A DNA stretch of 13,455 nucleotides from a virus, in UHGV virus genome UHGV-0114979. One strand, given 5' to 3'. The notes beneath the pieces were generated by a model that saw nothing but the letters and a program-made list of their open reading frames with translations, did no database searches and was not told the DNA's origin. Every line of letters starts with the position of its first letter. The stretch's first letter is position 1. The position numbers and the translations under genes were made by a program. Positions 3,513 to 6,362 of the stretch are shown piece by piece.

Positions 3513-4499
3513 ATGACTGAAAAGAAAAGTGGCGAAGGGAAAGCTAAGGGCGGGATCGCTCGCGCAAAGTCGCTGACTAAAGAGCAGCGTTCTGAAATAG
3601 CAAAGAAAGCAGCGGCAAAACGATGGGAAGGTAAGCCACTAAGAGCGATCAGAAAGGGTAACTTCATTGATGATTTCGGCATTGATGCAGAATGTTACGT
3701 ACTTGATGATAATGATAAAACGGTTGTAGTTAGTAAAACTGGTCTGGCTAAATTACTAGGAATCGGTGAGCATGGTAGGGATGTAGACCGTTTTCTAAAT
3801 ACGAATTATATGGCTGATTTTGTTGATCCATTTCTGCTAGAAAAATTCAAAAAACCTCTTATTTTTCAATGGAGAAGTCCGGTCCCAAACTCAGCCCCAA
3901 ATCCACTCGCTGATGAGGCTCACGGTTACGATATTGCCCTTATCGGTGATATAGCCACAGCAATGATTAATGCCGATCGAGCTGGCGCTCTACCGCCTTC
4001 AAGATCAAAATCTGCCAGCCTTGCCCAAAGACTTGTTACCGCATCAATGAAAGCAGGGCTTAAAGGACTTGGTTATGCTATTGCAGGATATCGACCTGAA
4101 GTACAGGAGGTTATTGATTCCTTCAAGGCCTTTGTTCGTGAAGAGGCGAGGCAGTATGAAAAAGAATTTCCAGATGAGCTATATGAGGAGTGGTATCGAC
4201 TGTACGGCCTGAACAGGCCAGAGAAGGGACGTCCAATTCGTTTTGGGCAGCTAACCAACATGCAGATATACACTCCGCTAGCAAAGAGTAAAGGTAAAAT
4301 CCTTGAACAGATTCGAGCCAGCCGAGACGAGAACGGAAAACAATCTGATAAGTTGCACCTGTTCCTTTCTGAAATTGGTGTCAAGGCTTTGCGTCAGCAT
4401 ATCGGTAAGCTTCTTGGTGTCGCAGCGATGAGCGAGACAAGAGAAGAATACGAAAAAGGAATAGAAAAGGTTTTTGGAAGAATAAAACCAGAAATCTAA
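3513..4499 (+). CDS. Hypothetical 328-aa protein with a basic Lys/Ala-rich N-terminus, occupying the sieA-equivalent cargo slot
   Basis: Long ORF; the ORF track starts at TTG 3450, but ATG 3513 is preferred, with a purine-rich AAAGG 10 nt upstream. The N-terminus is MTEKKSGEGKAKGGIARAKSLTKEQRSEIAKKAAAKRWEGK, a basic segment that looks like a nucleic-acid-binding tail. The rest is hydrophilic with no transmembrane segments and no catalytic motif I can recognise. Followed by a strong bidirectional terminator. Confidence 0.8.
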   Translation: MTEKKSGEGKAKGGIARAKSLTKEQRSEIAKKAAAKRWEGKPLRAIRKGNFIDDFGIDAECYVLDDNDKTVVVSKTGLAKLLGIGEHGRDVDRFLNTNYMADFVDPFLLEKFKKPLIFQWRSPVPNSAPNPLADEAHGYDIALIGDIATAMINADRAGALPPSRSKSASLAQRLVTASMKAGLKGLGYAIAGYRPEVQEVIDSFKAFVREEARQYEKEFPDELYEEWYRLYGLNRPEKGRPIRFGQLTNMQIYTPLAKSKGKILEQIRASRDENGKQSDKLHLFLSEIGVKALRQHIGKLLGVAAMSETREEYEKGIEKVFGRIKPEI

Positions 4500-4501
4500 T
4501 T

Positions 4502-4529
4502 AAAAAACCCACCTTCAGGTGGGTTTTTT
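4502..4529. terminator. Bidirectional Rho-independent terminator shared by the convergent 328-aa gene and mnt
   Basis: AAAAAACCCACC-TTCA-GGTGGGTTTTTT: 7-bp G/C-rich stem (4507-4513 / 4518-4524), 4-nt loop, A-run on the left and T-run on the right. The mnt stop codon (revcomp of 4515-4517) lies in the loop, and the right arm plus T-run encode the Mnt C-terminus …KKPT. Confidence 0.8.
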
Positions 4530-4769
4530 ATCTTCTCCGTACATGCTGCTGAGAGTCTTTAGAAGAGCCTCCCTAAATTTTTCAGATTCTTGTTGAGCAA
4601 AACCTTCTATTGTTCTTGGTGATTTTTCTTCATCAATAGCAGCTTGCAAGATCATAACTATTTCTGAATTTAATGAGCGTCCGTTTTTCGATGCTCTTAT
4701 GGTCAGGTCGCGCTTGAGGCTATCTGGCATTCTTACGCTATATGGGGCTATGTCTCTAACCTTCGTCAT
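4515..4769 (-). CDS. mnt: Mnt-like ribbon-helix-helix repressor (immI region)
   Basis: 84 aa: MTKVRDIAPYSVRMPDSLKRDLTIRASKNGRSLNSEIVMILQAAIDEEK… The N-terminal beta-strand/helix pattern and the NGRS-x-NSE signature match the Arc/Mnt (MetJ-Arc) family. Size matches P22 Mnt (about 82 aa as recalled). Divergent from arc across an operator-rich intergenic region, as in P22 immI. Confidence 0.8.
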   Translation of the reverse strand: MTKVRDIAPYSVRMPDSLKRDLTIRASKNGRSLNSEIVMILQAAIDEEKSPRTIEGFAQQESEKFREALLKTLSSMYGEDKKPT

Positions 4770-4878
4770 ACTTACACCGTGATGATCACATTGATATCAC
4801 AGTGTATTCAAAAAAATTTTGACTTGATATACTCACAGTGATATGTTTGTGATTCACAATAACTCACGTGGTGGCAAT
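4770..4878. promoter_or_regulatory. Divergent mnt/arc-ant promoter-operator region (Pant/Pmnt analogue)
   Basis: 109-bp intergenic between divergent RHH repressor genes. Palindromes: GTGAT-G-ATCAC (4779-4789), TGATATCA (4792-4799), TCAC-A-GTGA (4833-4841), TGTGA-T-TCACA (4848-4858). Candidate rightward promoter: -35 TTGACT (4819-4824), 17-bp spacer, -10 TATGTT (4842-4847). The TCACAGTGA palindrome sits in that spacer and TGTGATTCACA near the start site. I could not place the leftward mnt promoter with confidence. Confidence 0.55.
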
Positions 4879-5031
4879 ATGGAAAAAGAAGTTAGCAGAA
4901 TTTTGGTGAGAATGCCTCAGTCGCTAAAAGATGCGATTACTGGAAAGGCCAAAGAAGAATGCCGGTCGTTTAACTCGGAAGTGATTAAGCGATTGCTGGA
5001 CAGCCTGAAGAGAGAGGGGGTGGTGGTATGA
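4879..5031 (+). CDS. arc: Arc-like ribbon-helix-helix repressor
   Basis: 50 aa from ATG 4879, with GGTGG 4 nt upstream; the ORF track's 4843 start adds 12 residues with no RBS. MEKEVSRILVRMPQSLKDAITGKAKEECRSFNSEVIKRLLDSLKREGVVV resembles P22 Arc (53 aa as recalled), including RS-x-NSE and the C-terminal KKEG-like motif. Confidence 0.8.
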   Translation: MEKEVSRILVRMPQSLKDAITGKAKEECRSFNSEVIKRLLDSLKREGVVV

Positions 5032-5219
5032 AAAACCGCAGATGTTGTTTTTGTGGGTGTAGTAAAGAAACGACTGGCAGGGGCTTTGTTGTGTCAAAAA
5101 ATACCGAAGAAGCAATTTGTGACTCATGCGTTACAGATATTGTTATTTTCATGCATGGCGAGAAGGGGTTAGATGAAAAGCTAGAGAGTATTCCAGTTGA
5201 AGGCGCTGATAAAAGTTGA
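5028..5219 (+). CDS. 63-aa C4 zinc-ribbon protein resembling the ClpX N-terminal zinc-binding domain
   Basis: The start ATG overlaps the arc stop (ATGA at 5028-5031), and a GAGGGGG purine tract lies upstream. MKNRRCCFCGCSKETTGRGFVVSKNTEEAICDSCVTDIVIFM… has C-x-F-C-G … I-C-D-x-C-V with about 21 residues between the Cys pairs, the same pattern as the ClpX zinc-binding domain (…CSFCGKS…ICDECV…). The C-terminal 25 residues are acidic. Confidence 0.6.
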   Translation: MKNRRCCFCGCSKETTGRGFVVSKNTEEAICDSCVTDIVIFMHGEKGLDEKLESIPVEGADKS

Positions 5220-5285
5220 AGCCCCAACTGCTGTAACAGTCAGGGCTTCGGTTGTCGGTAAATCCTTGGAGAAAAACCAACATGA
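5210..5285 (-). ncRNA. Candidate sar-like antisense RNA covering the ant ribosome-binding site and start codon
   Basis: On the minus strand a -10-like TATACT (revcomp of 5288-5293) would start transcription near 5282; the -35 is weak. Transcription would run leftward across the ant SD (GGAG 5268-5271) and ATG (5282-5284) into a hairpin (stem GAAGCCC 5218-5224 / GGGCTTC 5243-5249). On the minus strand the hairpin is followed by AACUUUUAUC. Predicted length is about 70 nt, matching the 68-69 nt I recall for P22 sar, which has the same position and polarity. Confidence 0.3.
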
Positions 5286-6184
5286 ATAGTATAGCAATTT
5301 TAGAAGCAGTGAACACCTCTTACGTACCATTCAACGGTCAGCAAATTATCACCGCCATGGCTGCCGGAGTTGCATATGTTGCGATGAAGCCAATCGTTGA
5401 AAACCTTGGAATGAGCTGGTCAACGCAGCAAACAAAACTCATGAAGCAGATTAGCAAATTCAACTGTGTTCATATGAACATGGTTGCCGCTGATGGGAAG
5501 CTTCGTAAGCTACTCTGCCTTCCTTTGAAGAAGCTAAATGGATGGCTGTTCAGCATCAACCCTGAGAAAGTTCGTGCTGACATCCGCGATAAACTTATTC
5601 AGTACCAGGAAGAATGCTTTACTGTGCTGCATGACTACTGGACGAAGGGAAAGGCAGAAAATGCACGTAAGAAAACATCTGTTGATGACAGGACTCCGCT
5701 TCGTGATGCTGTAAATATGCTAGTCAGCAAAAAGCATCTAATGTACCCAGAAGCTTATGCAATGATTCATCAGCGTTTCAATGTGGAAAGTATTGAAGAG
5801 CTTGATGCATCTCAGATACCGCAAGCAGTAGAGTACATCCACAGGGTAGTGCTTGAAGGTGAGTTCGTCGGCAAACAAGAGAAGAAAACCAACGAGCTTT
5901 CTGCAAAAGAAGCAAACAGCCTTGTATGGTTATGGGATTATGCCAACCGCTCACAGGCATTATTCCGCGAACTGTATCTGGCGCTAAAACAAATTCAATC
6001 GAACTATTCCGGCAGATGCTACGACTATGGCCATGAGTTCTCGTATGTTATCGGAATGGCGAGAGACGTTTTAATCAATCACACACGAGATGTTGATATT
6101 AATGAGCCAGACGGACCAACGAATCTTTCCGCATGGATGAGACTTAAGAATAAAGAATTACCTCCTTCAGTACATAACTACTGA
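5282..6184 (+). CDS. ant: Antirepressor Ant (P22 Ant N-terminal-domain family)
   Basis: 300 aa from ATG 5282, with GGAG 10 nt upstream; the ORF track's TTG 5252 start is rejected. [56 protein letters not shown]… matches the phage antirepressor N-terminal domain family. It lies downstream of arc, as in immI, and the length equals P22 Ant (300 aa as recalled). Confidence 0.85.
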
Positions 6185-6202
6185 CAGATAAACAACGCAA
6201 CG

Positions 6203-6226
6203 ACCCAGCTTCGGCTGGGTTTTTTT
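6203..6226 (+). terminator. Rho-independent terminator downstream of ant
   Basis: ACCCAGC-TTCG-GCTGGGT followed by TTTTTT (6221-6226): 7-bp stem, GNRA-like tetraloop TTCG, U-run. Confidence 0.8.
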
Positions 6227-6237
6227 ATGCCCAAAAT

Positions 6238-6336
6238 TCACCGTAGCTACTCAGCGGCTATGGACATGAGAGATAGCACTACACAAAAAGTGTAGTGCAA
6301 AAAGCAAACAAATACTCACCGTAGCCATGCTGCGGC
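6238..6336. promoter_or_regulatory. Symmetric repeat-hairpin-repeat element in the tailspike 5' region
   Basis: Direct repeats TCACCGTAGC-N6-GCGGC at 6238-6258 and 6316-6336 flank a perfect 9-bp-stem hairpin (GCACTACAC 6276-6284, loop AAAAA, GTGTAGTGC 6290-6298). Spacing is 17 bp on each side. Lies between the ant terminator and the tailspike SD (GGAG 6351-6354). Confidence 0.3.
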
Positions 6337-6362
6337 GATTCCTTGTATCTGGAGCAAATTAA

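Follow-up and report, generated by a model that had tools for sequence, protein, structure and literature searches.

The closest described relative of the locus considered here is the sar RNA of Salmonella phage P22, reportedly characterized by Liao et al. in 1987, Wu et al. in 1987, and Schaefer and McClure in 1997. The primary P22 papers are said to have found that convergent transcription from the strong promoter Pant interferes with the sar promoter, Psar, and that sar would accumulate once Arc shuts Pant off. P22 sar, an RNA of 68–69 nt, pairs with the leader between arc and ant; the ribosome-binding site of ant is thereby covered, and less antirepressor is made, a post-transcriptional effect (PMC12197685, PMC7968456). 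It acts in addition to the repression that Arc and Mnt exert on Pant, and lysogeny is not established normally without it (PMC12197685, PMC7968456; discussion in PMC11016777), and a 2026 RNA-seq study detected it again in P22 infection (PMC13397905). The stretch between genes 16 and 9 that holds this system, called immI or the “ant moron” region, is highly variable among P22-like phages (PMC2629481). The phage L paper contains nothing on sar. We note that the details of P22 mapping and mechanism used for comparison below are drawn from database annotations, reviews, and general background.

We compared this system with a locus in a 13,455-nt stretch of DNA, hereafter the window. This 13.5-kb window is the end of the late operon of an E. 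coli phage or prophage related to P22 (Lederbergvirus), and its immI region is framed by the following features:

71–1321: injection proteins (Inj_translocase)
ending at 4499, plus strand: P63C-domain gene
4515–4769, minus strand: mnt-like repressor gene, 84 aa (Pfam Arc/RHH domain, 35.8 bits; position and orientation as for P22 mnt)
4819–4847, plus strand: candidate Pant, TTGACT, 17 nt, TG-TATGTT (promoter scan; position fits the P22 Pant/Pmnt region)
4879–5031, plus strand: arc-like repressor gene, 50 aa from the ATG at 4879 (Pfam Arc PF03869, 44.6 bits)
5028–5219, plus strand: zinc-ribbon ORF, 63 aa, CxxC...CxxC, between arc and sar (ORF list; phrog_7150, E = 5.7e-8)
5282–6184, plus strand: ant, antirepressor gene, 300 aa (Pfam P22_AR_N, 153.6 bits; P22_AR_C, 98.6 bits)
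6202–6221, plus strand: ant terminator (terminator scan; position equals that of the annotated P22 and epsilon34 ant terminator)
6363–8564: tailspike with P22 head-binding domain

This arrangement matches the immI context in which sar is found, with a divergent mnt gene and an arc-ant operon under Pant; the sole departure is the extra ORF between arc and sar. The candidate Pant was the only plus-strand promoter-like site called by the promoter scan in 4400–6400. We infer that the arc-like gene starts at 4879; a longer ORF opens at 4843, but transcription probably begins downstream of that point. The P63C-domain gene (stop at 4499, plus strand) and mnt (stop at 4515, minus strand) converge, and a 13-bp hairpin with flanking A-runs and T-runs lies between their stop codons, at 4501–4530; it looks like a bidirectional terminator serving both genes. 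In one related prophage (L006, 3657–4182), two overlapping tandem mnt-like ribbon-helix-helix ORFs of 94 and 88 aa lie opposite arc, and the second is almost identical to the mnt-like protein of the window.

Several further genes lie on the far side of the tailspike. Downstream of it is an Acyl_transf_3 gene (8635–9627, minus strand), likely involved in O-antigen acetylation as in phage Sf101, followed at 10656–11834 by a tyrosine integrase gene on the plus strand and at 12531–12833 by a homologue of the Lar restriction-alleviation protein on the minus strand. Early-left genes are also present at the far end of the window, after the acyltransferase and integrase.

Judged by sequence comparison, positions 5214–5281 on the minus strand are very probably an ordinary P22-type sar gene within a complete immI region (mnt, Pant, arc, extra ORF, sar, and ant). 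The RNA itself would then be one already known, a member of a curated family in its canonical context, with nothing new in it. The features that make up the gene are as follows:

5211–5281, minus strand: sar antisense RNA gene, predicted length 68–71 nt (RF00262; ends by homology to the P22 and epsilon34 misc_RNA annotations)
5254–5281, minus strand: sar stem-loop I, GUUGGU...ACCGAC (MFE structure)
5218–5249, minus strand: sar stem-loop II, the predicted intrinsic terminator hairpin, 14 bp, loop UACA (terminator scan and folding)
5208–5217, minus strand: terminator tail AACUUUUAUC, with the U run at 5214–5211 (sequence and terminator scan)
5268–5271, plus strand: ant Shine-Dalgarno GGAG, the predicted sar target (sequence; complementary to CUCC in sar)
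5288–5296, minus strand: predicted Psar extended -10, TGC TATACT, in ant codons 3–5 (identical to the annotated P22 Psar region)
5311–5316, minus strand: Psar -35 hexamer GTGTTC (position from the P22 promoter annotation)

An Rfam scan of the whole window returned a single match at gathering level, to the sar family (RF00262) at 5214–5281 on the minus strand. The match scored 94 bits (E = 1.7e-19) against a gathering score of 43 bits and covered model positions 1–68 of 68 with no truncation. When the window was aligned with the P22 arc-ant and sar region, a check suggested in a preliminary description of this DNA, 66 of 68 bases of the RNA were identical to P22 sar (97%), and both the promoter and the terminator had counterparts. 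Of the two substitutions, that at 5257 replaces a G-U pair of stem I by G-C, and that at 5232 affects the loop of the terminator. No base differs from P22 in the start region, the spacer, or the -10 with its TG extension. In a megablast search of 50,697 phage records, homology to P22 (86%) and epsilon34 (98%) started at window position 5212, the sar 3′ end, and ran through ant, which is itself 86% identical to P22 ant and 98% identical to epsilon34 ant at the DNA level.

The P22 and epsilon34 records carry annotations for sar and its promoter, and P22 also for the terminator, at positions corresponding to those in the window. In both records, sar starts at the base immediately 5′ of the ant ATG, its promoter covers ant nucleotides 7–35, and its 3′ end falls at the stop codon of the upstream gene or within 1–2 nt of it. 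With the full-length family match, this correspondence confirms the likeness to P22 sar in position, polarity, and length that had been drawn initially. The 5′ end in the window is accordingly placed by homology at the G at 5281, and the 3′ end should fall in the U run at 5214–5211. The minus-strand RNA therefore abuts the start of a P22-type ant gene at 5282 on the plus strand and contains the ant Shine-Dalgarno sequence. The preliminary description had predicted an antisense RNA of about 70 nt lying over both the Shine-Dalgarno sequence and the ATG of ant. The length and the coverage of the Shine-Dalgarno sequence (GGAG, 5268–5271) stand, and the complementarity takes in the spacer as well, but coverage of the ATG was rejected, since the ATG occupies 5282–5284 and the RNA starts at 5281.

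Folding of the predicted ~70-nt minus-strand RNA, another check proposed at the outset, gave the same two-hairpin structure, with a minimum free energy (MFE) of -32.5 kcal/mol and z = -5.6. None of 200 shuffled sequences folded as well. The MFE and centroid structures coincide and show one hairpin at the 5′ end, from +1, and at the 3′ end a G+C-rich terminator hairpin with U residues behind it. Stem-loop I carries the anti-Shine-Dalgarno sequence CUCC in its loop and upper stem, opposite the GGAG of ant. Since -10-like hexamers are common in AT-rich sequence, one might ask whether a random hairpin had simply come to lie beside a random hexamer of this kind. The shuffling result, the Rfam E value, and the 97% identity to P22 sar refute a chance hairpin, and we regard this explanation as having next to no probability.

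The terminator hairpin is a 32-nt inverted repeat (5218–5249) that forms 14 pairs on the minus strand, seven of them G-C, with a 4-nt loop and the tail AACTTTTATC. Of the four terminator-like sites in 4400–6400 (1.0 expected in shuffled sequence), this one is the strongest. The tail of its P22 counterpart is shorter (AACUUUACGC), and the U-tract reads UUUUAU in the window vs. UUUAC in P22. In the 2026 RNA-seq study of P22, the sar locus is listed as 104 nt, extending from 6 nt upstream of the annotated +1 to ~30 nt beyond the annotated 3′ end (PMC13397905, Table 2). The extra length suggests that its boundaries were drawn loosely or that transcription runs past the short U-tract of P22.

The hairpin and its U-tract had been described as functional in the minus orientation only, and the folding energies agree with this. 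The hairpin reaches -22.0 kcal/mol on the minus strand (z = -6.2) vs. -16.0 kcal/mol on the plus strand (z = -4.4), where it is not followed by a T-run, and stem-loop I reaches -9.0 vs. -3.4 kcal/mol. These differences stem from G-U pairs of the antisense RNA, whose counterparts in the mRNA are C-A mismatches. Still, the plus strand does fold, and the hairpin sits between two cistrons of one operon, so its main action could instead be on the sense transcript between the zinc-ribbon gene and ant, where it might stabilize the RNA, mark a site of processing, or serve as an attenuator. We consider this very improbable, as the plus-strand hairpin contains two internal C-A mismatches, is 6 kcal/mol weaker, and is followed by GGTTGTCGG, without a U-tract, and ant must be read through it. 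By contrast, the minus-strand form has a full terminator signature and belongs to a characterized RNA family. Termination of a plus-strand transcript at this hairpin was likewise rejected.

The -10-like element that had been noticed on the minus strand within the first codons of ant was also borne out. TATACT is the complement of 5288–5293, which form ant codons 3–4 (AGT ATA), and it is preceded by TGC at 5296–5294. The preliminary description was right to call the -35 weak, as GTGTTC has only 2/6 matches to TTGACA at 17-nt spacing, but it had overlooked the TGn extended -10. The P22 hexamer is GTGTTA, and that of the window has one match fewer; GTGTTC also occurs in epsilon34 and in three ant 5′ sequence types, 39 loci in all. 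A generic sigma-70 scan of 4400–6400 did not call Psar because its -35 has fewer than 4/6 matches, and the promoter call therefore rests on homology and conservation. An extended -10 is a known way to dispense with a good -35, and here the TGn plausibly compensates for the weak hexamer. At the level of sequence, the RNA has its own predicted promoter inside the first ant codons, reading away from ant.

If the system works as in P22, RNA polymerase would start at Psar, the extended -10 promoter in ant codons 3–5 on the minus strand, and transcription would begin at 5281, one base before the ant ATG. It would end at the intrinsic terminator formed by the hairpin at 5249–5218 and the U run, and the product would be an RNA of 68–71 nt with two stem-loops. 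Every base of this RNA would find its complement in the leader that separates ant from the upstream ORF, and the sar:mRNA duplex would reach from that ORF's stop codon to ant position -1. By pairing across the ant Shine-Dalgarno sequence, sar would block ribosome binding and limit antirepressor synthesis, as is known for P22. As in P22, it would presumably act beside the transcriptional repression of Pant by Arc and Mnt.

We compared ~130 related loci overall. An IMG/VR scan for the terminator hairpin, using a pattern that forced an identical terminator stem, yielded 120 loci, in which the start of the downstream gene always lay 62–66 nt after the start of the hairpin. The downstream antirepressors in these loci had at least six N-terminal types, and the 5′ half of the RNA differed accordingly; all 17 of the divergent variants tested reached the Rfam threshold, at 46–86 bits. 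Because this set had been selected on the hairpin, a second set was gathered through the Ant protein in species-representative genomes. It contained sar at gathering level in Entomohabitans, Lonsdalea, and Pluralibacter, and sub-threshold but clearly homologous sar in Pantoea, Citrobacter sedlakii, Hafnia, Photorhabdus, and Rosenbergiella. Compensatory changes in the terminator stem were seen in Photorhabdus, Pluralibacter, Pantoea, and Rosenbergiella; this covariation evidence comes from only the ~8 genomes found via the Ant protein, because the IMG/VR pattern had fixed the stem.

All 27 distinct variants, from phages and eight other enterobacterial genera, adopted the same fold, with a hairpin at +1 or +2 and then the terminator, vs. 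~5% of shuffled 5′ segments that gave this architecture. The outer stem of hairpin I took 19 distinct sequences among these variants, and the stem was kept in every one. Folding sequence by sequence with a shuffle control is weaker than structural alignment with formal covariation statistics. When a MAFFT alignment of 28 variants was given to RNAalifold, stem I was out of register and the terminator hairpin alone was recovered.

The promoter was conserved as well. At ant nucleotides 7–12, the minus-strand hexamer read TAnnnT at a fixed position in all 33 distinct ant 5′ types (TATACT in 23), and TG preceded the -10 in 31 of the 33. In Photorhabdus, where the protein begins MSIIT, the encoded residues differ, and the -10 persists as TGT TATAAT. 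Wherever codon 4 specified Ile in the 33 types, the codon was ATA, which is rare in E. coli. Residues 3–5 of very different antirepressors are mostly S-(I/L/V)-(A/S), and their DNA is nearly fixed as AGT ATA GCA because the strand opposite these codons forms the extended -10 of Psar. The N-terminus of the ant protein is, by all appearances, constrained by the antisense promoter.

These comparisons also bear on whether the conserved block is mainly a recombination linker, that is, a mosaic boundary between arc/cargo and ant modules in which Psar is too weak to act and sar is a silent relic. Such a reading would fit the abrupt start of P22 and epsilon34 homology exactly at the sar 3′ end, the joining of at least six ant types to at least eight upstream gene types by the same hairpin, and a -35 with only 2/6 matches that the promoter scan missed. 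However, a pure linker would not need stem I, which has been kept through 19 different sequences, nor a TG-extended -10 at a fixed position in 31–33 of 33 ant 5′ types. Moreover, the G-U pairs favor the minus strand, the U-tract is retained behind the hairpin whatever the upstream gene, and the GTGTTC -35 recurs in three ant 5′ types (39 loci, epsilon34 included). These patterns appear to be those expected from selection on an antisense transcript and argue against a merely inherited relic, and we therefore consider the linker explanation improbable and favor a sar gene of the P22 type.

More distant Ant homologues, in Pasteurellaceae, Neisseria, Pectobacterium, and a metagenomic gammaproteobacterium, were found without sar (L129, L131, L133–L139, L141, and L143). 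These loci instead carry a match to the Rfam family sRNA-Xcc1 (RF02221; 56–83 bits) on the same strand as the Ant gene and 5′ of it. The match lies ~30–140 nt upstream of the Ant match in most of them and ~350–440 nt upstream in L138 and L139, as if it were a 5′ leader, and some of the loci hold further copies elsewhere.

The junction between arc and sar is where the window departs from P22. The zinc-ribbon ORF shares bases with both of its neighbors: its ATG and the arc stop are joined in ATGA, and the sar hairpin includes 2 nt of its TGA. The preliminary description had placed the hairpin directly after this stop codon, which requires correction, as the TGA at 5217–5219 includes the first two hairpin bases. 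Its view that the insertion left the sar architecture intact was sound, given that P22 and epsilon34 homology begins at the sar 3′ end. A small ORF was present between arc and sar in about half of the IMG/VR loci with enough upstream sequence, and the inserted ORFs, or cargos, comprise at least eight unrelated types of 57–89 aa. Observations on cargos come from the window (5028–5219) and from loci L003, L006, L013, L024, L030, L031, L045, L047, L056, and L067. Four types are Cys-rich ribbons, one of them a true ClpX-type zinc finger (L056; 43 bits, PF06689). Beyond the ribbons there are an 80-aa protein, an ORF of 57 aa that starts with GTG, a probable membrane protein of 89 aa, and the 73-aa phrog_11805 protein that phage 611R6 also has.

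Both borders of these insertions were regular. In cargo-bearing loci, Arc ended in ...SLKREG(I/V)xV wherever the upstream ORF was detected, and the overlapping ATGA at the Arc C-terminus was seen in the window and in L006. At the other border, all the listed cargos ended with a TGA embedded in TTGAAGCC, overlapping the first two hairpin bases. The last codons of the gene upstream of sar are also constrained by the U-tract on the opposite strand (AAAAGT TGA, AAAAACGT TGA, and AAAACAG TGA). Several cargo proteins, that of the window included, have K/S/Q-rich C-termini because the opposite strand encodes the sar U-tract.

The zinc-ribbon ORF of the window appears to be rare. It had three homologue clusters among 5.8 billion proteins and no match by tblastn in 50,697 phage records, and the cargo block of the window was found in 1 of 5,426 complete E. 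coli genomes. A Pfam search at default stringency returned no match for it, and against the ClpX C4-type zinc finger (PF06689) it scored 12 bits (E = 0.2), short of the gathering score of 27. The cysteine pairs C6/C9 and C31/C34 are invariant in four homologues. An AF2 model, built from a very shallow alignment of four sequences, had pLDDT values of 78–88 over residues 1–40. Its best fold match in the PDB was the ClpX zinc-binding domain (ZBD; 2ds5_A), with a probability of 0.97, a target-normalized TM-score of 0.76, and an rmsd of 1.5 Å but an E value of 0.33, and a sequence match to ClpX (6vfs) had E = 0.028. As modeled, the protein weakly resembles the ClpX zinc-binding domain. We did not assign it to the ClpX zinc-finger family, since it fails the Pfam threshold and the E values are weak.

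These observations allow a broader proposal, which we offer as speculation with the odds against it. The arc-sar junction would be a dedicated cargo slot between two conserved linkers, its genes would be co-transcribed with ant from Pant and perhaps affected by sar, and several of them, that of the window included, would encode look-alikes of the ClpX-ZBD that might act as decoys. The linkers may be the Arc C-terminus (...SLKREG(I/V)xV) on one side and, on the other, the sar terminator, the first bases of which supply the TGA of the cargo. Because the last cargo codons lie inside the sar:mRNA duplex, sar could affect the cargo genes too. Free-standing cargos that look like the ClpX zinc-binding domain might, as decoys, shield Ant or another ClpXP substrate.

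For the RNA itself, the value of the analysis lies in correct annotation, as many P22-like phage and prophage records, including vB_EcoP-611R6 and RefSeq E. coli prophages, mark arc and ant but not sar. It also illustrates that sar can be recovered from raw sequence on first principles. The comparative data add modest support to the old model in two respects: the first five codons are under constraint from the Psar -10 even in very different antirepressors, and stem-loop I co-varies with the ribosome-binding site of each. The proposed arc-sar cargo slot with its ClpX-ZBD-like mini-proteins is a possible lead for the biology of phage-host proteolysis.

Among known systems, two small phage RNAs offer more distant parallels. 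The c4 RNA of P1 and P7 is processed from the same transcript as its target. Like sar, it blocks translation of an antirepressor gene (ant) at the ribosome-binding region, but it is not read opposite its target site and is listed as acting in trans (PMC12197685); the likeness is one of analogy only. The window had no match to the c4 family at Rfam gathering thresholds. The OOP RNA of lambda pairs with the 3′ end of cII and brings about RNase III-dependent decay. Like sar, it is short (77 nt), acts in cis as an antisense RNA, comes from a lambdoid phage, and reduces expression of a regulator of lysis and lysogeny, but its target is cII (PMC12197685). It belongs to another family with another mechanism.

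The sar gene of Salmonella phage epsilon34, a misc_RNA annotated by similarity as that of the window is (EU570103; PMC2629481), has 98% DNA identity across sar and ant and the same GTGTTC -35. It differs in having a P22-type arc directly upstream, in the terminator loop, and in one loop base of stem-loop I (window 5266). Escherichia phage vB_EcoP-611R6 (ON470589), which is 95.7% identical over 88% of window positions 4500–6300, shares the layout of arc, extra ORF, sar, and ant. Its extra ORF, by contrast, encodes an unrelated 73-aa protein (phrog_11805), and sar is unannotated in its record. P22 sar agrees with that of the window in its two stem-loops, the position of its 5′ end relative to the ant ATG, its extended -10 and spacer, and an identical terminator stem, and it lies in the same immI context between gene 16 and gene 9, the tailspike gene. 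The window differs from P22 in its E. coli host, in arc and mnt genes that have diverged beyond megablast detection, and in the 63-aa zinc-ribbon ORF that stands where P22 has arc directly upstream of sar.
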